Shown: positions 5,611-28,834 of the stretch, one piece after another | Layout of the letters: every line of letters starts with the position of its first letter | Numbering within the stretch: the stretch's first letter is position 1 | Assembly (NCBI GenBank): GCA_963931495.1 | Contig: OZ007020.1 | Coordinates: 450,001 to 482,000 of the forward strand | Source of the DNA: an uncultured Alphaproteobacteria bacterium | GTDB taxonomy: Bacteria > Pseudomonadota > Alphaproteobacteria > Rs-D84 | DNA length: 32,000 nucleotides | Reading direction: 5' to 3' | Translations under genes and position numbers: made by a program | Notes under the pieces: generated by a model | Seen by the model: the letters and a program-made list of their open reading frames with translations, nothing else | Database searches by the model: none | Told to the model about the DNA's origin: nothing

Positions 5611-5812
5611 CGCAACAATGTGTTATTGTTGTGTGGCTTCACATCCACTGCAAAGCATCGCGATATGCGATGAAAAATTCTCCAACCAATCCGGGTTGGA
5701 GGGGTCTTGAATATATATTGAATAAAGACCGCAATTCTTTGCAGTTGTTGTGAACCTCCAACCACTTGAATTTATTTCCGGTGGTTTTTTGTTGCAAAAA
5801 TGGGGGTCAAAG
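5611..5812 (+). promoter_or_regulatory. structured 5' leader, copy A; candidate riboswitch or attenuator-like element
   Basis: There are four pairing segments: seg1 CTCCAACC (5680-5687), seg2 GGTTGGAGG (5694-5702), seg3 CCTCCAACC (5755-5763) and seg4 GTGGTT plus a T-run (5781-5790). Hairpin P2 is GGTCTT[GAATATATATTGAATA]AAGACC (5703-5730). Hairpin P3 is 5731-5742. The SD TGGGGG lies at 5801-5806. See the findings for the model. Confidence 0.5.
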
Positions 5813-6388
5813 ATGAAAAAGATATTTGTCGCCATTGTCGCGTGCATGATCTGCAACGTTGGTTGGGGTATTAATTGGGTTTGTGAAATAGACCAGTGTG
5901 ATAAAGGAACTTGGGCGCTAGATGATAATCCTTATAATAACCCATGTATGGTTTGCCCAGCCAACACATATCAAGATGGCTGTATTAATCTTGGTGAAGA
6001 GTGTACCCCATGTCCCGCGGGGACCGGCACGATTGGTGATACGGCGGCCCATCACGACAGTATTGATGATTGTATTCCGATGGAAACAGAAGAAATATCT
6101 TGTAATCCGGGATATTATTTACCCGCAAACAGTCAACAATGTACGCAATGTCCACGTAATCATTATTGTCCCGGTGGGACGTTTACAGAAACGACATCTG
6201 ATTCTGGGATAACACAATGTCCTGATAATATGTATTCACCACTGGGGTCAGATAGTGCGGATGATTGTGGGCGCGTGTTACATATTGGCGAATATATTTT
6301 ATATCTGCGCACGGCAAAACTGACCGTGCCATCACTGAATGTCCAGATTGGCAACACGATATATTACGGTGATATGTTCCCCGCGTAA
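5813..6388 (+). CDS. small secreted Cys-rich protein, paralogue A (ephrin-receptor-like/GCC2-GCC3-type CxxCP repeats)
   Basis: The start is moved from 5750 to ATG 5813, because the longer ORF would translate the leader hairpins. The signal peptide is MKKIFVAIVACMICNVGWG. The mature part has about 14 Cys in motifs CMVCPANTYQDG, CTPCPAGTGTIG, CTQCPRNHYCPGG and QCPDNMYSPLGSDSADDC. The C-terminal tail is CGRVLHIGEYILYLRTAKLTVPSLNVQIGNTIYYGDMFPA. Confidence 0.85.
   Translation: MKKIFVAIVACMICNVGWGINWVCEIDQCDKGTWALDDNPYNNPCMVCPANTYQDGCINLGEECTPCPAGTGTIGDTAAHHDSIDDCIPMETEEISCNPGYYLPANSQQCTQCPRNHYCPGGTFTETTSDSGITQCPDNMYSPLGSDSADDCGRVLHIGEYILYLRTAKLTVPSLNVQIGNTIYYGDMFPA
6002..6388 (+). repeat. left arm of a 387-bp inverted repeat (partner 14656..15042)
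   Basis: From TGTACCCCATGTCCCGCGGGG to the stop codon, the DNA is near-identical to the reverse complement of 14656..15042, with only a handful of substitutions by eye. Identity ends exactly at the stop codon. Confidence 0.85.
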
Positions 6389-7458: not shown

Positions 7459-8286
7459 ATGACTTGGACAATTTTAATCCTGGTGATTGGTATTCTGTTG
7501 TTCTTGTTCGGTGGTATGTTGCTGGGCAAGGGTGACGACAAAAAACCATCTGCGGGAAAAATCGTTGCAAACAAATCTATCACATTAATTGCGATTATTT
7601 TAATTGCAGGCAGCATGTGCCGTCTGTATACACCGTATTATCTGACCGCGGTTAACCCGGCAATTGTACAGGAAATGATTACAGGTATGCAGGAACAGCA
7701 ACAGGCGGAAAAGAACAAGCAAATTCGCAAGTATGTTCGCGAAGAAGGTGACAGAATGATGCGTGATGCGCCGGTTCTGGGTAATCGCGATGCGAAAAAG
7801 ACAATCTATGTCTGGACAGACTTTTCTTGCCCATTCTGCCGTCGGGTTCATGGTGAACTGGATCGCGTGATGGCGAATCGTGATGATTTCCGCGTTGTTG
7901 TAAAGAACTTCTCTATCCATGGGGCTTTGTCTGATGCGCCGGCCAAGGCAGTTATTGCAGCAAACCTGCAAGATCCAGAAAAGGCCGCGGAACTGACAGA
8001 CATGCTGATGACGCGTGAATATTATACGCAAGCAGATTTGGAAGACCAAGCCAACGTGGCAGACAAGGTTGAAGCAAATGTTATGAAATTTGCCAAAGAA
8101 GTTGGATTGGATACAGAAAAATTGAAAGAAGATATGAACGGCGAAGTTGTTGCACGCGAATTGAGAAATGTACGTGATTTGGCACAACGCTTTGAAATCA
8201 ATGGTACACCGTTCTTGATTATCGGTGAACAGGCGTTCCCGGGTGCAATCCCAGCGGATCAAATTGAAGCCGCATTGAATGAATAA
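7459..8286 (+). CDS. membrane-anchored DsbA-family thiol:disulfide oxidoreductase
   Basis: An AAAGGAGAAAATA Shine-Dalgarno region precedes the ATG. There is an N-terminal TM helix (WTILILVIGILLFLFGGMLL). The thioredoxin-fold active site is WTDFSCPFCRRVH (CPFC). The C-terminal ...INGTPFLIIGEQAFPGA is typical of the DsbA family. Confidence 0.85.
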   Translation: MTWTILILVIGILLFLFGGMLLGKGDDKKPSAGKIVANKSITLIAIILIAGSMCRLYTPYYLTAVNPAIVQEMITGMQEQQQAEKNKQIRKYVREEGDRMMRDAPVLGNRDAKKTIYVWTDFSCPFCRRVHGELDRVMANRDDFRVVVKNFSIHGALSDAPAKAVIAANLQDPEKAAELTDMLMTREYYTQADLEDQANVADKVEANVMKFAKEVGLDTEKLKEDMNGEVVARELRNVRDLAQRFEINGTPFLIIGEQAFPGAIPADQIEAALNE

Positions 8287-9802: not shown

Positions 9803-9966
9803 CTATATTTTCCTTTGGTTTACACAGCCGGCAACCCCATGTCGCCAGCAGGAATCCCACCAATTATGACGAAAAATTTAATAAAATCAAGTGTTTTGTA
9901 AATTTGATTAATCTGGCATGGATTTTTATGTGTATTTGTGTCATAATTATTCGTAACGGGCAGAGA

Positions 9967-10878
9967 ATGAAGTTCTTATACGGTGTTTTTATTGGGGTAA
10001 TGGCTGTTTTGCCGAATCTTGCCCATGGGGCGGGTTTTGTTACGCATACTGTTATGTGGGATGTTGAAGATACGCCTGATATAGGTGGCCAGGATGCATA
10101 TGATGAATATATGAAGGGCCTGTTTTGCAAAGATGGTGCCGGTGCGATAACTGTTGGTGAAAATGGTATAGAAGTATTATGTGAATCATGGAAAAGTGCA
10201 GAACCGGCAGATGCGGATATTAAAAGTGCCCATGGAATTGCGCTGTGTCGTGCACAGTGTGCCGAAAATGGTGAAATATACGTGTCTGGCACGGGTGGTG
10301 ATGATTGCCGATGTCGGCCGGCCCCATCCCAGGACCCAGAAATAATTGAACTTGAAGCATCTGTAAACCGCCAGGTGGCCAGCCGTACAAATCGCCAGAT
10401 TAACAGGGATGTAAACAGTTTGGTTAATGAAGCGGACAAGGAGTTAAGCAGTCAAATTCGTGATGAATTGCGTAATCAAAAGTCCGATTTACGGGCGGGG
10501 GCGAAAGAATCTGATTCCGCAATGTCAGAACTGACGGCGGCGGTAAATCGCGACGTTCTGGAAAGCGAAATGAGAAATCCGGACATTGACCAGATTGATA
10601 GTGATGTCGCGAAAATGAATGAAGATCTAGATAAACAGCTGGACAAGCAACTGGAATGCGAAAGTCGTAATCCGCCAATGGGGGTAAAGAAAAACGCGCT
10701 GGGGTTGTGGGTTTGCACAGAAACAGAAGACACGATTGCGGCACGCGAGCAGAAAAAGGCAAATAACAAAGCCTTAAAGGCATTCTGGGACGATATTGAT
10801 GATATTGAACGTGCGTTTAATCGTCGCGTTCGTCAATTGCGTCGTGTGGCGAATGCAGATAATGGGGGCGACCAATGA
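9967..10878 (+). CDS. secreted protein with a Cys-containing N-terminal domain and a long charged coiled coil (unknown function)
   Basis: The start is moved to ATG 9967, giving signal peptide MKFLYGVFIGVMAVLPNLAHG|AG. The N-terminal domain contains ...CRAQCAENGEIYVSGTGGDDCRCRP. The rest is D/E/R/N/Q-rich helical sequence. The stop overlaps the next start (ATGA at 10875), suggesting translational coupling. Confidence 0.7.
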   Translation: MKFLYGVFIGVMAVLPNLAHGAGFVTHTVMWDVEDTPDIGGQDAYDEYMKGLFCKDGAGAITVGENGIEVLCESWKSAEPADADIKSAHGIALCRAQCAENGEIYVSGTGGDDCRCRPAPSQDPEIIELEASVNRQVASRTNRQINRDVNSLVNEADKELSSQIRDELRNQKSDLRAGAKESDSAMSELTAAVNRDVLESEMRNPDIDQIDSDVAKMNEDLDKQLDKQLECESRNPPMGVKKNALGLWVCTETEDTIAAREQKKANNKALKAFWDDIDDIERAFNRRVRQLRRVANADNGGDQ

Positions 10879-12545
10879 AACGAAATTTAATCGCCACATT
10901 AATGATGTTATTTCCCATTGTTGCGTTTGGGGGCCCAGATTTGTCGGCAATTGAATCAGCGCAAACAATGGATGAATTAAAGACGGCATATAAAGACGCG
11001 GTGGAAAATGTTATTACAGAAAACAAGGATAAAGTTGATTCATTTGAATTGATTTCTGCGCGCACACAGTACCAGGAAAATATAGTCGCGCTGGATGAAG
11101 ATGCGGCAACGTTAACAAATAACACGGATGCAAAAAATCAACAAAGTGAAGATGCCCCGGCAAAGATTCTTTCGCAAGAAGATTCGTTGGCCCAGATTTC
11201 GGAATTACAGGCGAATGCGGACGCGATGCGTGACAAAGAACAATCAACAGCGAACAAGATACTGGGGGCTGCCGGCATTGGTGCAACAGGTATTGGATTA
11301 ATGCAAACAGCATCTGCGTTGGCGCAACAGAATGCATCAAATGATGCGACACGCGATATGACGGCATACCTGGCAACATTCCGGTGTGACTATGGTTCTG
11401 GTCGCAACATCAGTGGTGGTGAAACGGGCATAACGTTACCTGGGGGGAACCAGTTATTACCACTGTATACAGAATATATAACATTGGCATCAGACTTAAA
11501 GACGCGTAAAGAAGCATTGGGATTAAGTCCTGGCATAGAATCCGAGATAATACAAGACAGTGCGACATCTGGGTTATACGACAATGTATCGTTGGGTCGC
11601 GGTGATGGTGTATATGTATCATTGGCGGCGGCGTTATCTGATCCGACTGGACCTGCGGCGGCGGCATGGGCGGCGCAACAATCTGCGACATCGGAACAAT
11701 TACAAACAGGTTTAATAACGGCTGGGGTTGGTACATTGGCCAGTATAATTGGCAATATTGCGATAAATGAAAACAAAAAATCACCCCAGAATTTAACTGA
11801 TGACATCATCGCAAAGTATGATGCCAAGCGTACGGTTATCAAAGAAGATTTGTCTGGAACCGAAGAAGATTCAAAACAAGATGCAGAAGATGCCGTGCCG
11901 GCGCCAGAAGATGGCAAGGCGCCGTCTGGAGGGCATACGGAATATTTGATTAATGCGCAACAGGCGTGTGAAGCGTTGTCTGGGAAATGGGATGCGGTTG
12001 CAGAAATATGTCATTGTGCGGGTTACCAAATATGGGATAACTATGCATTAACATGTCTGGATGATGACGCACCGTATGATGATGTGGTGCCCCAGCCGGT
12101 TAATAAACCAATTGTTACACTGTATGCGGAATCATTGTTTGACAGTGGCAAGGTACAGGTTAAATCACCAACAGATAAACTGGATGATGTGATTGATTCA
12201 ATAAAAAATGAAATTGCAACCGATACCGGGGTAGAAATATTGTTGGTTGCGCATACAGACAGTGACAAGATAATCCAAAGTGCAAATTTATGTGCGCGTG
12301 ATAAAATATGCACAAATCAATCACTGTCGGTGGCGCGGGCGGAATCTGTACGCGGTTATATTCAAAATAAATGGGCAGATATGCCGGCCGGTATAAGTAT
12401 AACAATTCGTGGTGTTGGTGATCAATGTGCCAATCCGAACAGTTCTGATGCGCAAAAAGCACTGGAACGCAAGGTTGATTTCTATGTGTTCTTTAACGGT
12501 GAAGACACGGATAATATTGATGTATGCAGTGTCGGAACAAATTGA
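10875..12545 (+). CDS. secreted or membrane protein with a divergent C-terminal OmpA-like domain (unknown function)
   Basis: The signal peptide is MKRNLIATLMMLFPIVAFGG. Internal Gly/Ala hydrophobic segments are present (ILGAAGIGATGIGLMQTASALA; GLITAGVGTLASIIGNIAI). The C-terminus reads ...LFDSGKVQVKSPTDKLDDVIDSI...EILLVAHTDSDKI...NQSLSVARAESVRGYI...ITIRGVGDQ...LERKVDFYVF. This follows the OmpA_C pattern (FdsGk...GHTD...N..LS..RA..V...G.G...NRRVe) with insertions. Confidence 0.75.
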   Translation: MKRNLIATLMMLFPIVAFGGPDLSAIESAQTMDELKTAYKDAVENVITENKDKVDSFELISARTQYQENIVALDEDAATLTNNTDAKNQQSEDAPAKILSQEDSLAQISELQANADAMRDKEQSTANKILGAAGIGATGIGLMQTASALAQQNASNDATRDMTAYLATFRCDYGSGRNISGGETGITLPGGNQLLPLYTEYITLASDLKTRKEALGLSPGIESEIIQDSATSGLYDNVSLGRGDGVYVSLAAALSDPTGPAAAAWAAQQSATSEQLQTGLITAGVGTLASIIGNIAINENKKSPQNLTDDIIAKYDAKRTVIKEDLSGTEEDSKQDAEDAVPAPEDGKAPSGGHTEYLINAQQACEALSGKWDAVAEICHCAGYQIWDNYALTCLDDDAPYDDVVPQPVNKPIVTLYAESLFDSGKVQVKSPTDKLDDVIDSIKNEIATDTGVEILLVAHTDSDKIIQSANLCARDKICTNQSLSVARAESVRGYIQNKWADMPAGISITIRGVGDQCANPNSSDAQKALERKVDFYVFFNGEDTDNIDVCSVGTN

Positions 12546-12555
12546 TTAAAGATTG

Positions 12556-12585
12556 TTGACTTGCCTTTATAAAATTTACTATCAT
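12556..12585 (+). promoter_or_regulatory. sigma70-like promoter candidate for the MotA/MotB-like pair
   Basis: TTGACT (12556-12561), an 18-nt spacer, then TATCAT (12580-12585), about 26 nt upstream of ATG 12612. Confidence 0.4.
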
Positions 12586-12611
12586 TTCTGTAAAGACAGA
12601 GAGAAACGCAC

Positions 12612-13367
12612 ATGAATAATCAATTTCATCATGCACTGAACAGAATGGCTTTCTTTACAGCATTGTTGGTGGCGGGGCTGATTTTATTTTATCGGCCGTT
12701 TCTGGGGATTGCCAGTGCGAACGTTGTTTTGAACGGCATTATTATTGGAACAATTTTATTCGGAATTGGGTTATGTTTTGTTGAAATGTTCAAATTGTTG
12801 CCGGAATATCGCTGGGCGCGGGCGTATTTTTCGGGACGGCGCAATGCGCCATTACCACCACGATTATTACGTTCTGTCGCGATTTTGTTGCGTTCGCGGC
12901 CACGTCGGATTTATGCGTCAACACTGAATGGAATGTTGGAAATGATTCAATTGCGCTTTGACGATTCGCGTGAATCTGTGCGGTATATAACAAATACGTT
13001 GATATTCTTGGGACTGTTGGGGACGTTTTGGGGATTGATAATAACCGTTGGTGGTTTCGCCGATTTAATTGGTGCATTGGATTTTTCAGACGAATCTGTT
13101 TTGCAAACGATGCAGGCGGGATTGACCGGGCCACTGGCGGGAATGGCGACCGCGTTTACCAGTTCGCTGATGGGACTGGCGGGCAGTTTGATCGTCGGAT
13201 TCTTGGGGTTACAGGTGCAATCGGCCCAGAATTCTATATTCCGCGATGTTGAAGATTATTTGGCGGCGCATACCAGTACGGCAATTCCGGATAATGAACG
13301 CGTTATCGCGGCAATATCAGGGGATGATGTTAATAATGAATCAAAGCGCAATGTAGTAAAACGTTAA
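12612..13367 (+). CDS. MotA/TolQ/ExbB-family proton-channel protein
   Basis: Four predicted TM segments. The family signature lies in the C-terminal half: TLIFLGLLGTFWGLIITVGGF ... GPLAGMATAFTSSLMGLAGSLIVGFLGL, compared with the LGLLGT..G and A..TT..GL motifs of ExbB/TolQ/MotA. Confidence 0.8.
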   Translation: MNNQFHHALNRMAFFTALLVAGLILFYRPFLGIASANVVLNGIIIGTILFGIGLCFVEMFKLLPEYRWARAYFSGRRNAPLPPRLLRSVAILLRSRPRRIYASTLNGMLEMIQLRFDDSRESVRYITNTLIFLGLLGTFWGLIITVGGFADLIGALDFSDESVLQTMQAGLTGPLAGMATAFTSSLMGLAGSLIVGFLGLQVQSAQNSIFRDVEDYLAAHTSTAIPDNERVIAAISGDDVNNESKRNVVKR

Positions 13368-13391
13368 AAGTGTGTGCACAGGGGGGAACAG

Positions 13392-14504
13392 ATGATGAAT
13401 TTCAGATTTCGTAACCAGACAAATGCATGGCCGGCATTTGTGGATTTGTTTTCAAATCTGGTGATAATTTTAATATTTTTATTAATTGTGTTCGTGTTTC
13501 TGTGGACGACAACCAGTGTGTTTAATAAAGATTCTGGGGCCAAGGCGGTTGCGGATTTGCGGGCAACGAATGAAGAACAGGCGGCACGTATTGTGCAAAT
13601 GACCGCGGATGAAGAAGAGGCCAAGCGTTTGTTAATCTTGGCGCGTAATGAATTGGAAAACTTGGCGGCCAGTAATACAGAACTGACCAATGAACTGCAA
13701 CAGGTGGATGTCAGTATGGATGAACTGATTGCGGATTACGAAGCCAAAGTGGCCGAATTACAATCCCAGGGTACGGATTTACAGGACCAGGTTGCATCAT
13801 TGACCACGCAATTAAATCAGGCCAAACTGGATAAACAAAAAACGGCCGAACTGGAACAAGAACGCCGCGAATTACAGGCACAGATGACGGCCCAGCGTGC
13901 GGAATTGGCCGAACAGTTGAATAAATTAAACGCGGCACTGGATGCGGCAGAGGCGGCCGCCCATGAAAAAGATATTCAATATGTTGAAATGTCTGAACGT
14001 CTTAATAAAGCCTTGGCGGACAAGGTGGCGGAGTTAAATGATGTTGCACAGTACCAATCGGAATTCTATCGTGCAATCAAAGATGCGCTGGGGGATGAAC
14101 GATTCGTTCAGCCAGATGGTGACCGTTTCATAATTGCCAGTGATATTTTGTTCAGCAGTGGTTCATATACGTTGTCACCCGAAGGTAAAAATCAATTGCG
14201 CTTGATTGCAAATGTAATCAAGGATTTGGAAAATGTTATCCCGACGAATATCAATTGGATAATTCGGGTGGATGGTCATACGGATCGTCAACAGGTTATG
14301 TCTGGGACGCGTGCATTCAAAAATAATATGGAATTATCATTGTTGCGTGCAAACGCGGTCACAGATGAATTGGTTGCCAATGGGGTGTCGCCACGTCGCT
14401 TGGTCCCCAGTGGTTTCGGCGATTTGCACCCGGTGACATTGGGCACCGATACAGACAGTATGCAGCAAAATCGTCGCATAGAATTGCAATTAACCAACAG
14501 GTGA
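13392..14504 (+). CDS. MotB-like protein: N-terminal Asp-containing TM helix, long coiled coil and C-terminal OmpA/MotB peptidoglycan-binding domain
   Basis: The start is moved to ATG 13392, with a GGGGGGA SD at 13381-13387. The TM helix is AWPAFVDLFSNLVIILIFLLIVFVFLW, and its Asp sits where the MotB/TolR/ExbD protonatable Asp is found. About 190 aa of Q/E/L/A heptad-like sequence follow. The OmpA_C domain reads FSSGSYTLSPEGKNQL...IRVDGHTDRQQV...NMELSLLRANAV...GFGDLHPV...NRRIELQL. Confidence 0.85.
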   Translation: MMNFRFRNQTNAWPAFVDLFSNLVIILIFLLIVFVFLWTTTSVFNKDSGAKAVADLRATNEEQAARIVQMTADEEEAKRLLILARNELENLAASNTELTNELQQVDVSMDELIADYEAKVAELQSQGTDLQDQVASLTTQLNQAKLDKQKTAELEQERRELQAQMTAQRAELAEQLNKLNAALDAAEAAAHEKDIQYVEMSERLNKALADKVAELNDVAQYQSEFYRAIKDALGDERFVQPDGDRFIIASDILFSSGSYTLSPEGKNQLRLIANVIKDLENVIPTNINWIIRVDGHTDRQQVMSGTRAFKNNMELSLLRANAVTDELVANGVSPRRLVPSGFGDLHPVTLGTDTDSMQQNRRIELQLTNR

Positions 14505-14655: not shown

Positions 14656-15042
14656 TTACGCGGGGAACATATCACCGTAATATATCGTATTGCCAATCTG
14701 GACATTCAGTGATGGCACGGTCAGTTTTGCCGTGCGCAGATATAAAATATATTCGCCAATATGTAACACGCGCCCACAATCATCCGCACTATCTGATCCC
14801 AGTGGTGAATACATATTATCGGGACATTGTGTTATCCCAGAATCTGCGGATGATTCTGTAAACGTCCCACCGGGACAATAATGATTACGTGGACATTGTG
14901 TGCATTGTTGACTGTTTGCGGGTAAATAATATCCCGGATTACAAGATATTTCTTCTATTTCCATCGGAATACAGTCATCAATACTGTCGTGATCGGCCGC
15001 CGTATCACCAATCGTGCCGGTCCCCGCGGGACACGGGGTACA
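14656..15042 (-). repeat. right arm of the 387-bp inverted repeat (partner 6002..6388)
   Basis: The reverse complement is near-identical to 6002..6388 and encodes CTPCPAGTGTIGDTAADHDSIDDC...GNTIYYGDMFPA. Confidence 0.85.
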
Positions 15043-15249
15043 AGAAAAGTATGTACCACTTTCTTCTTGATATGTATTCGTTGGGCAAGTGCAACACATA
15101 TATGCGCCTTCGCCATCTGCTGGCGATGGTGCATTATACATTCCCGCCTGGCAATTCGTCCCCCCCGGCCTGGCGGGTGGCATGCAAATGCCCCATGCTG
15201 AATTATATGCTGTACACACGACAACAATGGCGATAAATATCTTTTTCAT
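14656..15249 (-). CDS. small secreted Cys-rich protein, paralogue B
   Basis: The start is moved from 15327 to ATG 15249, giving signal peptide MKKIFIAIVVVCTAYNSAWG. The N-terminal roughly 55 mature residues (ICMPPARPGGTNCQAGMYNAPSPADGEGAYMCCTCPTNTYQEESGTYFS) are unrelated to copy A. The C-terminal 128 aa are almost identical to copy A. Confidence 0.85.
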   Translation of the reverse strand: MKKIFIAIVVVCTAYNSAWGICMPPARPGGTNCQAGMYNAPSPADGEGAYMCCTCPTNTYQEESGTYFSCTPCPAGTGTIGDTAADHDSIDDCIPMEIEEISCNPGYYLPANSQQCTQCPRNHYCPGGTFTESSADSGITQCPDNMYSPLGSDSADDCGRVLHIGEYILYLRTAKLTVPSLNVQIGNTIYYGDMFPA

Positions 15250-15440
15250 CTTTAACCCCCATTTTCGTAACAAAAAACCACCGGAAATAAATTCAAGTGG
15301 TTGGAGGTTAGCAACTATCAAATACAATAGTGTCGTTTATTCAATATATTCACGAACCCTCCAACCGCAAGGTTGGAGTATGCGTATTTGCGAGGTTGCT
15401 ACACCCCGTATCAGAAACTTTCTGATACGTTCGTATTATA
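15250..15440 (-). promoter_or_regulatory. structured 5' leader copy B, including a TATAAT -10 box
   Basis: On the - strand: TATAAT (15440-15435), seg1 CTCCAACC (15378-15371), seg2 GGTTGGAGG (15366-15358), seg3 CCTCCAACC (15307-15299), then the AACCAC/GTGGTT hairpin and T-run (15302-15272). The P2 loop GAATATATTGAATA is conserved, while the P2 and P3 stems differ from copy A but still pair. Confidence 0.5.
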
Positions 15441-20045: not shown

Positions 20046-21146
20046 ATGGAAAAATACCTGAACCAGATTTTTGCCGGGGATTGTGTGGACGTTATGCGCG
20101 GCATCCCAGATGCGTCGGTTGATGCCGTGTTCGCAGATGCGCCATATAATCTGCAATTGGGGGAAAAAACATTGTATCGGCCCGAAGATCAAACAGCTGC
20201 CCGTGCGGTCCGCGATGCATGGGACAGTTTTGACAGCCCAGCGGCCTATGATGAATTTACACGTGCGTGGATGACCGAATGTCGCCGTGTGTTAAAGCCT
20301 GATGGGGCAATGTGGGTTATCGGCAGTTATCATAATATTTTCCGTGTTGGTGCCATTTTACAAGATCTGGGATTCTGGATTTTGAATGATATTGTATGGG
20401 TCAAGACCAATCCAATGCCGAATTTTCGCGGTACGCGTTTTACAAATGCGCACGAAACGCTGATCTGGGCAACGCCGCGTAAAACAGGCAAGTATACGTT
20501 TAATTATGAAACAATGAAAAAGTTAAATGGTGGCAAACAGATGCGTTCTGATTGGGATATTAATATATGTCTGGGCGAAGAACGCGTCAAAGATGCAAAT
20601 GGTAAAAGTTTGCATAATACGCAAAAGCCGATGGATTTGTTGCGCCGTGTGATTTTGTCTTCTACAAAGCAGGGTGATGTTATTCTGGACCCGTTTATGG
20701 GCAGTGGCACCACCGCCGCCGCGGCCAAAGAATTGGGGCGTAATTTTATAGGTATAGAACGCGAAGAATCATACGTCGCGGCGGCGCGGACCCGTGTTGA
20801 TGCGGTGCGTGCGGTGGATTTGTCGGATATAGAGGTTGCAATCCCGAAGCGTGCGGAAATTCGTGTGGCGTTCAAGGAACTGATTGATGCAGGACTGTTG
20901 TATGTTGGCCAGACGTTGGTCAGTCCGCGCGGCGAACGCGTCATGATTACGCGTGACGGACAATTGGCACATTCACTGCATGGCAAGGCGTCAATTCATG
21001 TTATGGCGGCGCGTTTGCAACATTGTGTCAGTTTTAATGGATGGGACTATTGGTCCGCGGAAAAGCGCGATGGGTCATTGGTGCCGATTGACGAATTGCG
21101 CAAATATCTGCGTGGAATAAAGCGTGATATAAAGCAGGCGGCGTAA
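20046..21146 (+). CDS. ccrM: CcrM-family N6-adenine DNA methyltransferase (beta class; GANTC specificity inferred by homology)
   Basis: Collinear with Caulobacter CcrM over the full length. Shared blocks include ...NLQLG..., WVIGSYHNIFRVGAILQDLGFWILNDIVW.K.NPMPNF.GTRF.NAHETLIWA, QMRSDW, HPTQKP-like HNTQKP, and VILDPFMGSGTTAAAAKELGRNFIGIERE. The CcrM-specific C-terminal domain is also present. ATG 20019 is an alternative start. Confidence 0.92.
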   Translation: MEKYLNQIFAGDCVDVMRGIPDASVDAVFADAPYNLQLGEKTLYRPEDQTAARAVRDAWDSFDSPAAYDEFTRAWMTECRRVLKPDGAMWVIGSYHNIFRVGAILQDLGFWILNDIVWVKTNPMPNFRGTRFTNAHETLIWATPRKTGKYTFNYETMKKLNGGKQMRSDWDINICLGEERVKDANGKSLHNTQKPMDLLRRVILSSTKQGDVILDPFMGSGTTAAAAKELGRNFIGIEREESYVAAARTRVDAVRAVDLSDIEVAIPKRAEIRVAFKELIDAGLLYVGQTLVSPRGERVMITRDGQLAHSLHGKASIHVMAARLQHCVSFNGWDYWSAEKRDGSLVPIDELRKYLRGIKRDIKQAA

Positions 21147-21192
21147 TATAATAATATGATGATGTTGAAAATTGTGGGCGCCAAAAAATCAC

Positions 21193-21221
21193 TTGTAAAA
21201 AGGTGAAAAAATCCATATACT
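21193..21221 (+). promoter_or_regulatory. sigma70-like promoter candidate for the giant repeat protein
   Basis: TTGTAA (21193-21198), a 17-nt spacer, then TATACT (21216-21221). A GGAGGG SD at 21282-21287 precedes ATG 21294. Confidence 0.4.
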
Positions 21222-21293
21222 GCAAGGGACGCAGGGCAAAAAACGTGCCGAATCTAAAGGAACGGTTAGTCACGACGATATCGGAGGGACACA

Positions 21294-24200
21294 ATGTCGC
21301 AGATTTTCGGGATTTTTAGAAATAGAAATATTGCTAAAATAACCGTTTACTTTTTTTTCTCTTTACTACTTTTGCTGTGCATTGTGCCTGATGGTTATGG
21401 GGCGGGTTATACATGCTCTGCGTCGTCCAAGAAATATACATCGTGCAAATCCGGGTATTACTTAAATGGTACCGGTGCCGGTAACAGTTGTTCAACATGC
21501 AGCAGTCTGGGTTATACATCATCTGCGAATGGTAATTCCAACGGTGCGGCGGCGTGTTATAAATCATGCACCAAAGCCTGTACGCGACAGACATGTCCAT
21601 CGTCAGCATACAGTTGCAGTCATGGCAGCACATCAACATCTGGGACACAGTATTATGGTGGTTCGTGCAGTGCCCCATCTTCAACATGTTCATTGACGAT
21701 AAACAGTTGCAAATCGGGATATTATAAGAACGGCAACAGCTGTGCAACATGCAGCAGTTTGGGTTATACGTCATCTGCGAATGGTAATTCCAACGGTGCG
21801 GCGGCGTGTTATAAATCATGTACCCGTGCGTGTACGCGACAAACATGTCCGTCAAATGCGACCTGTACCCATGGCAGTACATCAACCAGTGGTACCCAAT
21901 ATTACGGTGGTTCGTGCAGTGCGGCGTCATCCACATGTTCAATCAGCATATCTTGTAACTCAGGATATTACAAAAGCGGCAGCAGCTGTCCGGCCTGTAC
22001 GAGTGTCAGTGCGACGGACTTATCACAATCATGTTCACGCAATCCAACCAGCACGGAATTAAGTAACGCACATGCATACGCAGGTACAATCAGTGGTGCG
22101 AAGCAACAGTGTACTGGTAAACATACCGGTGGTGCGGGCGGAACAGCTGGCTCTGGGTCGTGCACCGGGTGCAGCAGTTGGGGTACATGCAGTGGCGGCA
22201 CATTAACCATTACATCATGTTCGGCGGGATATTATAAAGATGGTAATAGTTGCAAATCCTGTCCATCGGGGTATACATCTGCGAACGGTACAACGGGTGG
22301 CATTGGTTCGTGTTATATTAATGTATCTGCGGGTAATTATATTAAGGCAGCAAACAGTTCAACACAATCAACGTGTACGGCGGGGTATTGGAATCCGGCA
22401 CATACCGTGTACTATGGCAACACGTCTAGTTGTAATAAGTGCACAGGCACAACATATTCAGATACTGATGGCGCCAGCAGTTGCAAGCAATGCCCAACCG
22501 CAACAGAGTATGCCGACATAATAACAAGTTATTGGTATTGGTCAGAAGATGATATTCATGACACTATTGGTGGCTGTCGTGCCGAGTTTGATGAATCAGA
22601 TTCCAAGGGTTCGTACAATTACAGCTGTGCATATAAAAATGGTGATTATGGCGTTGCCGGTGGTGGTACCGGTACATGTATGGCGACGAAACCAAATTCT
22701 TGTGCTGCGACATATTATTGGCCGGGTGGAGATTCTAATATTTGGGCGGGCAATCGTGCGGAATTGTTAACGCAAATGTGTTCCAGTGTTGGCAAGGGAT
22801 ATTGGTCGGCGGCCGGTTCTTTGACCCGCAGCCAGTGTCCAGCGAACTATCGCGATGGCGCGGCGGCGGGCAGTCAGGCGGGTTGCAAGACCAGTTGTGC
22901 GGCCGGGACATATGTAAAGACAGCAAATGCAGCGTGTACATCTGTTGGCACGGGATATTACCGTGCTGCGCATACGGTAAGTTACGGCAGCACCAGTACC
23001 CGCAGCCAGTGTCCAGCGAACTATCGCGATGGCGCGGCGGCGGGCAGTCAGGCGGGTTGCAAGACCAGTTGTGCGGCGGGAACATACGTTGCGACAGCGA
23101 ATGCAGCGTGTACGTCGGTTGGTACGGGATATTATCGTGCGGCGCATACGGTAAGTTACGGCAGCACCAGTACCCGCAGCCAGTGTCCAGCGAACTATCG
23201 CGATGGCGCAGCGGCGGGCAGTCAAAATAACTGTATTGGTATATTTGAAAAAACAGGTGGCCAGAATAATCCGACCAAACCGACGGGTTGTGCAACGATG
23301 GAATACGCATCATCGTGTACACCGCCAACGTGTGAATATCAAAAGAACTATGCGGGTACTGTTGTTAAAGATTGTACGCCCGGGAATTGTACCAAGGCGA
23401 TAACAAAACTGACGGCAAATGCCGACAGATATGTGAATGGCACAACGTCTTGTCCGGCGTGCAGCAGTTACAGCAGTACGTACACCAAGTCAGATGGCGG
23501 CAGTATTACGTATAACTCTTGTTATATTACCAGAAGCAAGACGGGCAGCCAGGTTAACGGCAGTACGCCCAGTGGGTGTGCCAGTGTGACGGCATGGTAC
23601 GCATGTACGCCCGGCACGTGCACATACAAGGACTATTTGGGTCAGACTGGTGAAACATGCACGCCATCAAACTGTACTAAGTCGCCAAAGACGGTTACGG
23701 CAAAGGAGAATTACTATGTCAGTGGTGCAACATGTCCGGCGTGCAGCAGTTACAGCAGTACATACACCAAGTCAGATGGCGGCAGTATTACGTATAACTC
23801 TTGTTATATTACCAGAAGCAAGACGGGCAGCCAGGTTAACGGCAGTACGCCCAGTGGGTGTGCCAGTGTAACGGCGTGGAATGCATGTACGCCCGGCAAA
23901 TGTACGTACAAAGACTATTTGGGTCAGACAGGTGAAACCTGTACCCCATCAAACTGCACGAAAACGCCAAAGACAGTTAGGGCCAAAGAGAATTACTACG
24001 TCAGTGGTACGTCTTGTCCGGCATGCAGCAGTTACAGCAGTACATATACCAAGTCAGATGGTGGTTCAATAAGCAGTGCATATTGTTACCGAACAGCCAC
24101 CAAGACGGGCAGTCAGGTTAATGGCAGTACGCCCAGTGGGTGTGCCAGTGTAACGGCGTGGAATGCATGCACCCCCGGCACATGTACGTACAAGGACTAT

Positions 24201-25589
24201 GCCAGTGCGACGGATACAACATGTACACCGTCAAACTGCACAAAAACGCCAAAGACGGTTACGGCAAAGGAGAATTACTATGTCAGTGGTACGTCTTGTC
24301 CGGCGTGCAGCAGTTACAGCAGTACATACACCAAGTCAGATGGCGGTTCAATAAGCAGTGCATATTGTTACCGAACAGCCACCAAGACGGGCAGCCAGGT
24401 TAATGGCAGTACGCCCAGTGGGTGTGCCAGTGTAACGGCATGGAATGCATGCACGCCCGGCACATGTACGTACAAGGACTATGCCAGTGCGACGGATACA
24501 ACATGTACACCGTCAAACTGCACAAAAACGCCAAAGACGGTTACGGCAAAGGAGAATTACTACGTCAGTGGCACGTCCTGTCCAACATGCCCAACGGGGT
24601 ATCCGAACTCGGATGGTGGTACGGGTGGTGTAACGGTGTGTTACAGTAATACAAAATCCCGTGCATGGACCGGCAGCCAGGTTAACGGCAGTACGCCCAG
24701 TGGGTGTGCCAGTGTAACAGCGTGGAATGCATGTTCCAAGCCGGCATGTAGTTATGTTGCGTATTCCAACAGTGCTGGTACGGGCGATGGCGAAATAAAA
24801 AGTGGATGCAGCAGTAATAGCGCCAGTTGTACCAAGACCCCAAAGACAGTTACGGCCAAGGAGAATTACTATGTCAGTGGCACGTCCTGTCCAACATGCC
24901 CAACGGGGTATCCGAACTCGGATGGTGGTACGGGTGGTGTAACGGTGTGTTACAGTAATACAAAATCCCGTGCATGGACCGGCAGCCAGGTTAACGGCAG
25001 TACGCCCAGTGGATGTGCCAGTGTAACAGCGTGGAATGCATGTTCCAAGCCGGCATGTAGTTATGTTGCGTATTCCAACAGTGCTGGTACGGGCGATGGC
25101 ACAATAAAGAGTGGTTGCAGCAGTAATAGCGCCAGTTGCACAAAAAACCCAAAGACGGTTACGGCCAAGGAGAATTACTATGTCAGTGGCACGTCCTGTC
25201 CGACATGTCCGACGGGGTATCCGAACTCGGCGGGTGGGAACATTGGTCAAAGCATGTGCTATAAGACATGTGAAGACATAGACATTACCGGTGGGACGAA
25301 TGTACCGACCAGTGGCACGGCGTATTATGGCAACAGTTGCACATATACGACGGTTTGTGACGATGGGTATAATCTGACGGGGACAAACACGTGCAGCCAG
25401 TTATGTACACTGGGTGTGACCAGTCTGCGTACGGGTAATGGTGTGACGATACCGTTGTACAGTTCGGCATTATCCACACCATCGTTAAACATTGGTACTG
25501 GTGGTGGTGTATGCTATGGCATATTGGAAAGTGGTGCGGGAACACTGAACATCCAATATGACGGCAAAACGTATCACGCGGTGGATTAA
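21294..25589 (+). CDS. giant secreted Cys/Ser/Thr/Gly-rich repeat protein (CxxC-GYY modules; VSP-, furin- or GCC2-GCC3-like)
   Basis: A single uninterrupted 1431-codon ORF with a GGAGGG SD. The N-terminal hydrophobic signal or anchor is ...ITVYFFFSLLLLLCIVPDGYG|AGYTC. It is modular throughout: CKSGYY.NG.SC.TCSS, CKSCPSGYTSANG, SQCPANYRDGAAAGSQAGCKTSCAAGTYV, SCPACSSYSSTYTKSDGG, SCPTCPTGYPNSDGG. The C-terminus shares the LRT...PSLN(I/V)...YG module with the small paralogues. Confidence 0.85.
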   Translation: MSQIFGIFRNRNIAKITVYFFFSLLLLLCIVPDGYGAGYTCSASSKKYTSCKSGYYLNGTGAGNSCSTCSSLGYTSSANGNSNGAAACYKSCTKACTRQTCPSSAYSCSHGSTSTSGTQYYGGSCSAPSSTCSLTINSCKSGYYKNGNSCATCSSLGYTSSANGNSNGAAACYKSCTRACTRQTCPSNATCTHGSTSTSGTQYYGGSCSAASSTCSISISCNSGYYKSGSSCPACTSVSATDLSQSCSRNPTSTELSNAHAYAGTISGAKQQCTGKHTGGAGGTAGSGSCTGCSSWGTCSGGTLTITSCSAGYYKDGNSCKSCPSGYTSANGTTGGIGSCYINVSAGNYIKAANSSTQSTCTAGYWNPAHTVYYGNTSSCNKCTGTTYSDTDGASSCKQCPTATEYADIITSYWYWSEDDIHDTIGGCRAEFDESDSKGSYNYSCAYKNGDYGVAGGGTGTCMATKPNSCAATYYWPGGDSNIWAGNRAELLTQMCSSVGKGYWSAAGSLTRSQCPANYRDGAAAGSQAGCKTSCAAGTYVKTANAACTSVGTGYYRAAHTVSYGSTSTRSQCPANYRDGAAAGSQAGCKTSCAAGTYVATANAACTSVGTGYYRAAHTVSYGSTSTRSQCPANYRDGAAAGSQNNCIGIFEKTGGQNNPTKPTGCATMEYASSCTPPTCEYQKNYAGTVVKDCTPGNCTKAITKLTANADRYVNGTTSCPACSSYSSTYTKSDGGSITYNSCYITRSKTGSQVNGSTPSGCASVTAWYACTPGTCTYKDYLGQTGETCTPSNCTKSPKTVTAKENYYVSGATCPACSSYSSTYTKSDGGSITYNSCYITRSKTGSQVNGSTPSGCASVTAWNACTPGKCTYKDYLGQTGETCTPSNCTKTPKTVRAKENYYVSGTSCPACSSYSSTYTKSDGGSISSAYCYRTATKTGSQVNGSTPSGCASVTAWNACTPGTCTYKDYASATDTTCTPSNCTKTPKTVTAKENYYVSGTSCPACSSYSSTYTKSDGGSISSAYCYRTATKTGSQVNGSTPSGCASVTAWNACTPGTCTYKDYASATDTTCTPSNCTKTPKTVTAKENYYVSGTSCPTCPTGYPNSDGGTGGVTVCYSNTKSRAWTGSQVNGSTPSGCASVTAWNACSKPACSYVAYSNSAGTGDGEIKSGCSSNSASCTKTPKTVTAKENYYVSGTSCPTCPTGYPNSDGGTGGVTVCYSNTKSRAWTGSQVNGSTPSGCASVTAWNACSKPACSYVAYSNSAGTGDGTIKSGCSSNSASCTKNPKTVTAKENYYVSGTSCPTCPTGYPNSAGGNIGQSMCYKTCEDIDITGGTNVPTSGTAYYGNSCTYTTVCDDGYNLTGTNTCSQLCTLGVTSLRTGNGVTIPLYSSALSTPSLNIGTGGGVCYGILESGAGTLNIQYDGKTYHAVD
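21444..21953 (+). repeat. in-frame tandem repeat, two units of about 252-264 bp
   Basis: TGCAGCAGT(C/T)TGGGTTATAC...AATGGTAATTCCAACGGTGCGGCGGCGTGTTATAAATCATG occurs at 21498 and 21750. The units start at TGCAAATC(C)GGG, at 21444 and 21708. Confidence 0.8.
22827..23230 (+). repeat. in-frame tandem repeat, 174-bp period, about 2.3 units
   Basis: The anchor CGCAGCCAGTGTCCAGCGAACTATCGCGATGGCGC is at 22827, 23001 and 23175. The units encode SQCPANYRDGAAAGSQAGCKTSCAAGTYV.TANAACTSVGTGYYRAAHTVSYGSTSTR. Confidence 0.85.
23385..25230 (+). repeat. in-frame tandem repeat array with 282-bp (x4-5) then 309-bp (x2) periods
   Basis: The anchor AGTACGCCCAGTGG is at 23562, 23844, 24126, 24408, 24690 and 24999, giving spacings of 282, 282, 282, 282 and 309. 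Neighbouring units such as 24126-24330 and 24408-24612 differ at only a few positions. Confidence 0.9.
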
Positions 25590-27706: not shown

Positions 27707-28574
27707 TTATGAATAATAGCATGGCTGTACGTATGTATAGTTACCGGTGCTGTCACTGCCACTTGGGGGGATGACGTAACAACTGCTGATGCTGACCGTT
27801 TTTCCGATGTCGCCGGCTGTGGCCGTTGTTTGACCGCCAGACGAGTATGTCGGGCATGGCGTACAGTATGATGTTATCTGGTTCACGAAACTTATGCCGG
27901 GTGTACCGTAATAACCACGGGGACAGCGCACTTGGTCGGGCATTGTTGTCATGCATAGTGTGCTGGTGCTGTTGCACGCCTTGTTTGTGCGTCTTTGTAC
28001 GGCATTACTGCCGCTGTATAAAGTTTCCCATTCGTCCGGCACGCATGTTGATTCATCACATGAACCAGACGGCGATGTCGTTTTGTTATACAGGCATTTA
28101 TAGAATATCAATGTTGACGGACATCCGCGGATTTCAAATGTCTTGCGGGTGTAGTTCGTTTTGCAACCTGTTGCGGATTTTGCGTAATATTTTATACCAT
28201 CAATATCAAAACATACATTTGTGGTACCCGTGGCCCCAGAATCACCCAACACAGATGCAGACGAACCCGTATCTTGCCATTCGGTGCGACTGGAAATATC
28301 GGTACATCCCGCAGATATACACAACGCAAATCCGCCACCACCACCACCGGCACCACCAGTACTATCTTCACACTGAACACAGCAACTGGCGCCTTTCCCA
28401 ACTGCCGCATTCTATGCAGTTATGGATACATCTGTCGCCAGAAAAACTGATATCGCCACCCGAAGAACTGGCCGCGTTTGCATATTGGACACACATGGTT
28501 AACATAATCGCTGAAAACAAACCACCGTTTATAATGGCGGTTTTTATTTTTGTAAAAATCCCAGATTTCTGCAT
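27707..28574 (-). pseudogene. Cys-rich secreted protein split by a 1-nt frameshift (pseudogene, assembly error or recoding)
   Basis: The upstream piece runs 28574..28368. It has SD GTGGGGGA, signal peptide MQKSGIFTKIKTAIINGGLFSAIMLTMCVQYANA|ASS, then ...CIHNCIECGSWERRQLLCSV and a stop. The downstream frame is open from 28411 to 27707 (...GKGASCCVQCEDSTGGAGGGGGGFALCISAGCTD...RCPRGYYGTPG...CTPCPTYSSGG...). It has no ATG or SD of its own; the ORF track starts it at a TTG. The two frames overlap across 28371-28411. Confidence 0.6.
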
Positions 28575-28637
28575 TTTTTGTCCCCCACTTTTTGCCGAAT
28601 CCAAACGGTGGTTTAGGTTAGGCATCTATTCGTACAT

Positions 28638-28667
28638 ATTTTACCCAAAAATCCGACCATACGTCAA
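28638..28667 (-). promoter_or_regulatory. sigma70-like promoter candidate for 28574 gene
   Basis: On the - strand: TTGACG (28667-28662), an 18-nt spacer, then TAAAAT (28643-28638). Confidence 0.4.
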
Positions 28668-28834
28668 CGGCATTTTTGATGTTTGCTGTCGGTTTTTTAT
28701 TTCTATTAATAACAATAATTCATAAAAAATACCGTTTTATCTGATTTGTGGTAATCAGAATTGCTCACGAAATTTTTACTTTGCGATTATATGGATGATA
28801 ACGGATATAATTTGCTTGTTTTAATGACAGAATG

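Follow-up and report, generated by a model that had tools for sequence, protein, structure and literature searches.

The window, i.e., the complete 32-kb stretch of contig OZ007020.1 under analysis, holds three to four genes of one cysteine (Cys)-rich protein family: a giant gene, two small paralogues, and a frameshifted third paralogue. The giant gene on the plus strand is the subject of this report, and we propose below that its product most likely forms adhesive fibers or a coat at the cell surface. Its parts, in amino acid (aa) and window positions, are:

21283-21288, plus strand: Shine-Dalgarno sequence GGAGGG, 5 nt before the ATG (direct sequence reading)
21294-25589, plus strand: giant Cys-rich gene, a single intact open frame of 4.3 kb with an ATG start, 1431 aa
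21294-21401, plus strand: signal peptide, aa 1-36; its n-region is basic (R9, R11, K15), and its h-region spans residues 13-31
21402-21983, plus strand: N-terminal Cys-rich region, aa 37-230, 11.3% Cys, with two full and one partial copies of a ~84-aa module (pattern CKSGYY..NSC.TCSSLGYTSSANG...)
21984-22826, plus strand: non-repeated middle, aa 231-511, with sub-threshold Ephrin_rec_like/TNFR_ELAPOR1-like modules at aa 300-410
22827-23243, plus strand: 58-aa repeats in 2.3 copies, aa 512-650 (pattern RSQCPANYRDGAAAGSQAGCKTSCAAGTYV.TANAACTSVGTGYYRAAHTVSYGSTST); 174 bp x 2.3 with 94% matches (Tandem Repeats Finder)
23244-24575, plus strand: 94-aa repeats, aa 651-1094, one degenerate and four good copies (pattern SCPACSSYSSTYTKSDGGSI..CY..TKTGSQVNGSTPSGCASVTAWNACTPGTCTYKDY...TCTPSNCTKTPKTVTAKENYYVSGT); 282 bp x 4-5 at DNA level (same program)
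24576-25253, plus strand: 103-aa repeats in 2.2 copies, aa 1095-1320, a variant of the 94-aa unit (pattern SCPTCPTGYPNSDGGTGGVTVCYSNTKSRAWTGSQVNG...ACSYVAYSNSAGTGDG.IKSGC...); 309 bp x 2.3 with 94% matches at DNA level (same program)
25254-25589, plus strand: C-terminal region, aa 1321-1431, together with the stop codon; its final 66 aa (25389-25586) form the module that defines the family, CSQLCTLGVTSLRTGNGVTIPLYSSALSTPSLNIGTGGGVCYGILESGAGTLNIQYDGKTYHAVD

Reading frame and module architecture

An earlier note on this DNA, made from the letters alone, had described a single open reading frame (ORF) with a good Shine-Dalgarno sequence and an N-terminal hydrophobic signal. All three elements were recovered: the ATG frame of 1431 aa follows GGAGGG, and residues 13-31 constitute the sole hydrophobic segment of the protein, with a Kyte-Doolittle value of 2.47 compared with a maximum of 0.85 elsewhere. 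On the same scale, no second transmembrane segment was detected outside residues 1-40. The five motif strings quoted in the note are all present as well. Promoter-like hexamers lie upstream at 21124-21152 and 21193-21221, showing no enrichment over shuffled sequence. The encoded protein is rich in serine (15.4%), threonine (14.6%), glycine (11.7%), Cys (8.1%, n=116), and tyrosine (7.6%), and contains 14 CxxC motifs. The neighbors of the gene are core genes, namely nrdR, ccrM, clpP, clpX, clpB, and a lytic transglycosylase gene.

The giant combines at least three types of repeat, of about 84, 58, and 94/103 aa, with a conserved C-terminal module of about 65 aa; its three DNA-level repeats show 82-94% matches. 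Cleavage of the signal peptide probably occurs after GYG36 (GYG/AGYTC, the slash marking the cleavage site), because the mature start AGYTC aligns with the AGY[ST]C of the homologues, most of which carry a canonical ALA/ signal-peptidase site directly before it. Within the middle region, aa 400-500 form a Cys-poorer stretch rich in W, Y, and D. The 94/103-aa unit is the most abundant module, contributing about 45% of the protein. Its interpretation as a variant of the 58-aa unit was ruled out by an hhalign probability of 4%. Consequently, the initial description of a protein made almost entirely of CxxC/GYY modules can be maintained with respect to its modular and Cys-rich nature; it was overstated in its extent, since this 45% is unrelated to the 58-aa unit. 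PDB searches with the whole giant, the small paralogue, and profiles of the 58-aa and 94-aa units retrieved no sequence relatives.

Cysteine covariation and predicted fold class of the 58-aa repeat

Across the family, the 58-aa unit is the commonest module, with 626 units (263 unique) among the 120 listed homologues. Two Cys columns are invariant among the 263 unique units. A Cys in column 27 co-occurs with a Cys in column 42 or 43 in 128 of 128 cases, never one alone, and excludes a Cys in column 47 (phi -0.98). Units with a column-47 Cys show an extra Cys making CxxC at the start of the next unit in 118 of 132 cases, compared with 0 of 131 units lacking the column-47 Cys. This near-perfect covariation, with two alternative and internally consistent Cys pairings, argues for genuine structural disulfides and implies folding in an oxidizing, extracytoplasmic compartment.

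Prediction of structure and disulfide pattern as well as Foldseek searches of individual modules had been recommended in the earlier note. AlphaFold2 modeling of two 58-aa units from a 32-row alignment resulted in a short beta-hairpin ladder with a mean predicted local distance difference test (pLDDT) of 86 and a predicted template modeling score (pTM) of 0.70. Using this model, Foldseek retrieved 38 matches from PDB, none of them significant (best E=0.19, template modeling score about 0.3). All 38 are extracellular disulfide-rich receptor domains, i.e., OX40, CD40, HVEM, RANK, TNFR2, the Cys-rich domains of EphA2/A4/B6, thyroglobulin, and Elapor1. Based on the predicted model, we read this as placing the 58-aa units in the same broad fold class as the Cys-rich domains of tumor necrosis factor receptors (TNFR) and Eph receptors.

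Matches to known protein families

Profile scans were evaluated against the gathering scores of PF07699 (Ephrin_rec_like, formerly GCC2_GCC3; 23.1 bits) and PF03302 (VSP, variant-specific surface protein; 31.4 bits). Scanned alone, aa 340-410 of the giant reached 21.1 bits with PF07699 (E=2.6e-4), just under the gathering score, while aa 300-345 matched PF23091 (TNFR_ELAPOR1_6th; E=6e-4) and Pfam VSP (14.7 bits, E=0.015), both below the cut-off. Among the 58-aa units, 3 of 32 reached E<0.1 with PF07699. The small paralogue at 5750-6388 scored 32.2 bits with PF07699 (E=9.1e-8), which is above the gathering score, accompanied by weaker TNFR_c6 and TNFR_ELAPOR1 matches. PF07699, PF07562, PF23091, or PF00020 is carried by most of its 62 relatives, and the homologue P0026 matches PF07699 with 25.4 bits, again above the gathering score. 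By these scores, the small paralogue is an established member of Ephrin_rec_like, whereas membership of the giant is no more than suggested.

These data allowed a sorting of the likenesses drawn before. The resemblance to GCC2-GCC3 repeats holds at family level, resting on the small paralogue and most of its relatives. In contrast, the likeness to Giardia VSPs does not extend to kinship, as seen from the VSP profile score far under its gathering threshold and from the lack of both a transmembrane helix and a CRGKA tail. The giant had been considered unlike the usual bacterial adhesin repeat families and devoid of a beta-barrel, LPXTG motif, or secretion-system signal. Both statements are borne out: neither Pfam nor NCBIfam returned a barrel, a classical adhesin family, or an anchor, and regex scans for LPXTG, RTX (GGxGxD nonapeptides), and lipobox motifs were empty.

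The C-terminal module

A profile search in 1.84 billion cluster representatives detected 928 proteins with the C-terminal module of about 65 aa at E<=1e-3, of which 435 reached E<=1e-10. Carriers span 75-4739 aa with a median Cys content of 6.2%, and in nearly all of them the module is found at the extreme C-terminus. Ten mid-size carriers were scanned and showed no Pfam domain. Two subtypes can be distinguished. The giant carries subtype A (...G.T.L..G.G..IPLYS...T.P.INV.....VCYG.L..G..G.LNV.Y.G.TYH...), whereas subtype B follows the pattern CGRVLNVNGEKIYLRS.KKTTPSLNV.I.G..FYGNM....G.L.IKSG.TTYSVYDDSM. The module ends in HAVD or DDSM, the giant itself terminating in ...YDGKTYHAVD. As the earlier note had recognized, the module is common to the giant and the small paralogues, being found at 5750-6388 (plus strand) and 14656-15327 (minus strand).

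AlphaFold2 predicted an all-beta fold of six strands for the last 75 residues (pLDDT 80-92). The module has no match in Pfam or NCBIfam, and Foldseek against PDB retrieved nothing convincing (best E=1.3). Against BFVD, the best matches were uncharacterized proteins of uncultured Myoviridae/Podoviridae, none significant (E=0.1-0.2; 62-69 aligned columns, root mean square deviation 3.3-4.0, 20-24% identity). Weaker and equally non-significant matches of the model comprised adenovirus, extracellular contractile injection system (eCIS), and reovirus fiber shafts. An hhalign run-on hinted at the module being a Cys-less degenerate 58-aa unit acting as a cap, an idea ruled out by a profile-profile probability of 0.4%. 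A few high-scoring, multi-stretch matches of the module turned out to be Bacteroidota type IX secretion system (T9SS) proteins of Ig_7/PKD repeats, which hinted at an Ig-like nature of the module; direct comparison with Ig_7/PKD was insignificant (probability 2.5%).

The module keeps its position at the extreme C-terminus on proteins whose lengths differ 60-fold, which suggests a role in anchoring, export, or assembly. Unlike general sorting tags, it is combined with cargo that is nearly always of the Cys-rich kind.

Family, host organism, and strain variation

A search of 5.8 billion proteins yielded 284 homologues, and the family is distributed lineage-wide. Among the matches listed, they comprise 850-2475 aa with 6-10% Cys, commonly have a signal peptide and the AGYxC start, and carry the conserved C-terminal module with four exceptions. 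The family is defined by a Sec signal, an AGY[ST]C start, a Cys-rich modular body, and a C-terminal all-beta module of ~65 aa, all of which the giant possesses. Flg_new (InlB B-repeat) domains occur in about 40 of the 120 listed homologues, and an F5/8 type C domain occurs in P0030, both domains being typical of surface adhesins.

The ClpX encoded in the window shares a 90%-identity cluster with ClpX of Candidatus Enterousia excrementavium. The organism belongs to Candidatus Enterousia, a gut lineage of the order Rs-D84 (Alphaproteobacteria), in line with the host-associated alphaproteobacterium assumed beforehand. Genomes of Enterousia are <1 Mb in size and devoid of the tricarboxylic acid (TCA) cycle, respiratory chains, and standard transporters, and the organism has been proposed to be an obligate symbiont or parasite (PMC12306168). 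The giant gene alone thereby accounts for about 0.5% of such a genome. Candidatus Enterousia/Rs-D84 is widespread in the guts of humans (especially non-industrialized populations), poultry, ruminants, horses, and mice, with no cultured representative. A scan with one genome per species confirmed 89 loci with the C-terminal module, nearly all from gut metagenome-assembled genomes (MAGs) labeled Candidatus Enterousia, Alphaproteobacteria, or "Rickettsiales". Among the hosts sampled are humans (Brazilian and Hadza cohorts), chickens, yaks, buffaloes, deer, horses, and mice, and several MAGs hold two to three loci.

For genes of subtype B, 39 of 80 loci (L002-L081; e.g., L014, 6889-9598) show secA directly downstream and 25 of 80 show dnaE nearby; these genes represent positional orthologues across Enterousia. 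The subtype-A gene of the window shows no synteny with these loci. As candidates for a dedicated secretion system, the conserved neighbors were rejected: only secA/dnaE housekeeping synteny was observed, and for subtype B only. A literature search found no paper describing the family or bacterial radiations of Ephrin_rec_like.

Ephrin_rec_like is held to be a eukaryotic invention, with sporadic bacterial cases ascribed to horizontal transfer (PMC6993872, a review of Eph evolution). In line with this and with the top structural matches being TNFR-superfamily ectodomains, the giant could be a mimic, i.e., a secreted decoy or ligand for TNF-family or ephrin-type signaling built from horizontally acquired TNFR/Eph-like modules. 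However, its GC content at third codon positions (GC3) of 0.47 lies within the 0.38-0.485 of the neighboring core genes and its codon use is unremarkable, by which recent horizontal transfer was rejected. Moreover, the family spans the lineage, has diversified, and shows positional conservation next to secA, no eukaryotic sequence appeared among the 284 homologues of the giant or the 62 relatives of the small paralogue, and the similarity to TNFR/Eph exists at fold-class level only. Together with the core-gene setting, these findings leave the acquisition from a eukaryote considered in the earlier note unsupported as a recent event, and render a eukaryote-derived mimic improbable.

The closest variant, P0002, shares identical termini with the giant and differs in its copy numbers of the 58/94/103-aa units (5/2/2 versus 2.3/4/2.3). 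Since these differ at identical ends, repeat number varies between close strains. A related database entry, P0003 (849 aa, on a 3-kb contig), is truncated by a 1-bp deletion in GGTGGCC beside an A6 run, corresponding to window positions 23253-23262 (aa ~655); the frameshift may reflect either faulty assembly or a naturally occurring null allele. A phase-variable tract at this site was rejected, as it consists of GGTGGCC and A6 only and lacks a long homopolymer.

Near-identical DNA repeats assemble poorly and, in addition to the truncated P0003, a neighboring paralogue is frameshifted, all of which would speak for a giant that is itself a mis-assembled repeat array or a decaying pseudogene without functional product. 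Its 4.3-kb frame is open, though, and ENA assembly ERZ21549449 contains the identical protein on a contig of 469 kb seen in two samples. Considering further the hundreds of intact homologues with conserved termini and covarying cysteines, we regard an artefact or decaying gene as highly improbable.

Paralogues and neighboring genes

Besides the giant, the window contains the following genes related to it by family or by a possible role in folding:

5813-6388, plus strand: small paralogue 1, about 191 aa from the MKKIF start; it has a signal peptide and modules of the Ephrin_rec_like/TNFR-like type, and its C-terminal module is truncated
14656-15249, minus strand: small paralogue 2, inverted; its 3' 387 nt are 96% identical to paralogue 1, the middle is divergent
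27707-28573, minus strand: third Cys-rich paralogue with an apparent frameshift after the signal peptide and without the C-terminal module
7459-8286, plus strand: DsbA-like thiol:disulfide oxidoreductase with N-terminal membrane anchor and CPFC motif (PF01323 DSBA, E=8.6e-21)

In hhalign, small paralogue 1 matches the profile of the 58-aa repeats with E=4.8e-6 and a probability of 86%. Both small paralogues form an inverted repeat pair (5713-6388 and 14656-15349) approximately 8.3 kb apart, with the 3' repeats lying at 6002-6388 and 14656-15042. Their 5' 126 nt, covering upstream region and signal peptide, are 86% identical, followed by a divergent, cassette-like N-terminal segment of the mature protein. 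Such an inverted pair could permit inversion of the intervening 8 kb. At the third paralogue, the ORF with the signal peptide (MQKSGIFTKIK...ANA/ASSSGG...CIECGSW) ends near 28370, and the Cys-rich body follows in a different frame. An antisense ORF (27826-28725, plus strand) is called here in the source annotation. The locus may represent a pseudogene, a contingency locus, or an error of assembly.

The variation within the family lends itself to an explanation other than adhesion, namely a protective coat: a dense, disulfide-rich, protease-resistant layer in which paralogues and repeats would provide antigenic or phage-receptor variation, comparable in function to Giardia VSPs or ciliate surface antigens. 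Composition and CxxC content similar to VSPs, a multigene family whose members are conserved at both ends and vary between them (in the two small paralogues, the 5' and 3' ends agree and the middle differs), a polymorphic repeat copy number, and the occurrence of one frameshifted paralogue and one frameshifted allele are all consistent with this function. A VSP-type membrane anchor or tail is missing, however, Pfam VSP was not matched, and the few paralogues per genome compare with hundreds in Giardia. Neither long homopolymer tracts nor an invertible promoter were found, leaving no evident switching mechanism, and the positional orthology of the subtype-B genes is unlike contingency loci. Overall, we consider a coat in place of an adhesin rather unlikely.

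Two further sets of secreted or membrane proteins were noticed in the window. Tandem genes at 266-2500 and 2552-5056 (both plus strand) encode secreted acidic proteins of 744 and 834 aa with 4-5% Cys, which contain motifs such as C..AY..CMD.FC and the ends ...CEDINM and ...CEDIVM, unlike the giant. They belong to no Pfam family, with only a weak Gly-zipper match, and represent a second uncharacterized Cys-rich family. An apparent block of four genes occupies 9904-14504 (plus strand). Its products are a secreted protein of 324 aa, a protein of 556 aa whose C-terminus weakly resembles OmpA, a multi-pass membrane protein of 251 aa that matched nothing in Pfam, and a coiled-coil protein of 376 aa whose C-terminus is similar to OmpA/MotB; together they may constitute an envelope-spanning complex.

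Such envelope genes nearby (OmpA-family, lytic transglycosylase, and DsbA) would also suit a giant that is never surface-exposed and serves as a disulfide-rich periplasmic or envelope scaffold or tether. The presence of a Sec signal as the only export feature, with no recognizable outer-membrane export or anchor device, speaks for the same location. Lengths of up to 4739 aa, hypervariable repeats, and Flg_new/discoidin domains are instead hallmarks of exposed proteins, and we therefore give a purely periplasmic role little credence.

Proposed function

Taking all these data into account, we propose that the giant is a Sec-exported, disulfide-cross-linked modular protein of the envelope or surface of Enterousia, most likely acting as an adhesive fiber or coat, a reading to which we assign a probability of roughly 0.55. 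Following export via Sec, the small beta-hairpin Cys-rich modules of the ~84-aa, 58-aa, and 94/103-aa types would form a rod-like stalk. Their oxidation would take place in the periplasm, where catalysis of the oxidative folding of the Cys-rich family by the DsbA-like protein of the window is plausible, resulting in a stiff, protease-resistant fiber suited to the gut lumen. The C-terminal module would be the best candidate for fixing the fiber in the envelope or directing it outward. The exposed fiber may attach to, or shield from, the partner on which this metabolically dependent bacterium lives, which may be the mucus or epithelium of the host, a protist, or a different microbe. Recombination between the near-identical DNA repeats would lead to gain and loss of repeats and, in turn, to variation of length, surface, and epitopes among strains. 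Homologues with an additional Flg_new or F5/8 type C domain agree with the fibrillar-adhesin scheme of a stalk plus a binding domain.

Several observations weigh against an exposed adhesive fiber. Scans for an outer-membrane translocation or anchor device in the giant, covering autotransporter barrel, type I (T1SS) and type V (T5SS) secretion systems, T9SS, LPXTG, and lipobox, had no result, and no dedicated secretion genes flank the gene, its neighbors being ccrM and clpP/clpX. The whole giant matches nothing in Pfam, even at E<=1, or in NCBIfam, and the 94/103-aa unit and the C-terminal module, which have no recognizable relatives, add up to nearly half of it. The structural matches of the 58-aa model are all statistically weak. 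In addition, the mature protein contains an odd number of cysteines (115), and a DsbA-like protein in an organism without a respiratory chain makes the route of its reoxidation a puzzle.

Beyond the individual protein, we put forward a broader and clearly more tentative scenario, which we consider possible but doubtful: Rs-D84/Enterousia evolved or anciently captured receptor-like Cys-rich giants equipped with their own C-terminal domain for envelope attachment or export, serving as a docking organelle onto a partner cell. If true, this would be a bacterial counterpart of the coats of VSPs and ciliate antigens, made from modules of the Ephrin-receptor/TNFR class that were formerly regarded as essentially eukaryotic. 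Published genome analyses proposed the dependence of Enterousia on partner cells and did not name an attachment machinery; the present family, being lineage-conserved, multicopy, and strain-variable, is a concrete candidate for it. Its Ephrin-receptor-like/TNFR-like disulfide-ladder module supports a large native bacterial radiation, comprising hundreds of clusters in one order, which is noteworthy because Ephrin_rec_like is treated as a eukaryotic invention (PMC6993872). The 94/103-aa unit and the C-terminal domain represent targets for structural work, the latter as a possible new sorting or anchoring signal. Antibodies to the C-terminal module could be used to visualize or enrich uncultured Enterousia cells.

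Comparison with known systems

A short, conserved, all-beta C-terminal module on proteins of very different lengths is reminiscent of the T9SS C-terminal domain (CTD), the trimeric autotransporter anchor, and PEP-CTERM. It differs from these in matching none of their models, in lacking a terminal aromatic residue and a coiled coil, and in its cargo, which is Cys-rich instead of diverse. For the autotransporter/YadA_anchor barrel in particular, neither a Pfam or NCBIfam match nor a predicted preceding coiled coil was obtained. Alphaproteobacteria are not known to possess T9SS.

Giardia VSPs and high-cysteine membrane proteins as well as ciliate antigens resemble the family in their high content of Cys, Thr, Ser, and Gly, their CxxC motifs, and their tandem modules, and likewise in forming multigene families of gut dwellers with presumed protease-resistant extracellular rods. 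The giant differs from them by lacking a C-terminal transmembrane helix, the CRGKA tail, and a glycosylphosphatidylinositol (GPI) signal. Compared with VSPs, only 14 CxxC motifs are found among its 116 Cys, and the paralogues are far fewer.

With Ephrin_rec_like and TNFR-type domains (PF07699, PF00020, PF23091), the family shares the C..G.Y...C..C spacing and, according to the predicted model, would share small beta-hairpin modules with laddered disulfides. The 58-aa unit is, however, longer than the 48-aa Pfam model, contains a conserved AAHTV.YGSTS segment of its own, and displays two alternative disulfide topologies. In contrast to Eph and TNFR receptors, the giant is a bacterial, Sec-dependent protein outside any transmembrane, kinase, or death-domain context.

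Regarding bacterial fibrillar adhesins, no binding domain of their type is recognizable in the giant by Pfam, and it has no known anchor. Its stalk is composed of disulfide-rich modules of eukaryotic type instead of Ig-like beta-sandwiches and is terminated by a novel C-terminal module. Nevertheless, it shares with these adhesins its great length, an N-terminal signal, and a repetitive stalk of strain-variable copy number, and homologues of the giant bear the Flg_new and F5/8 type C domains.

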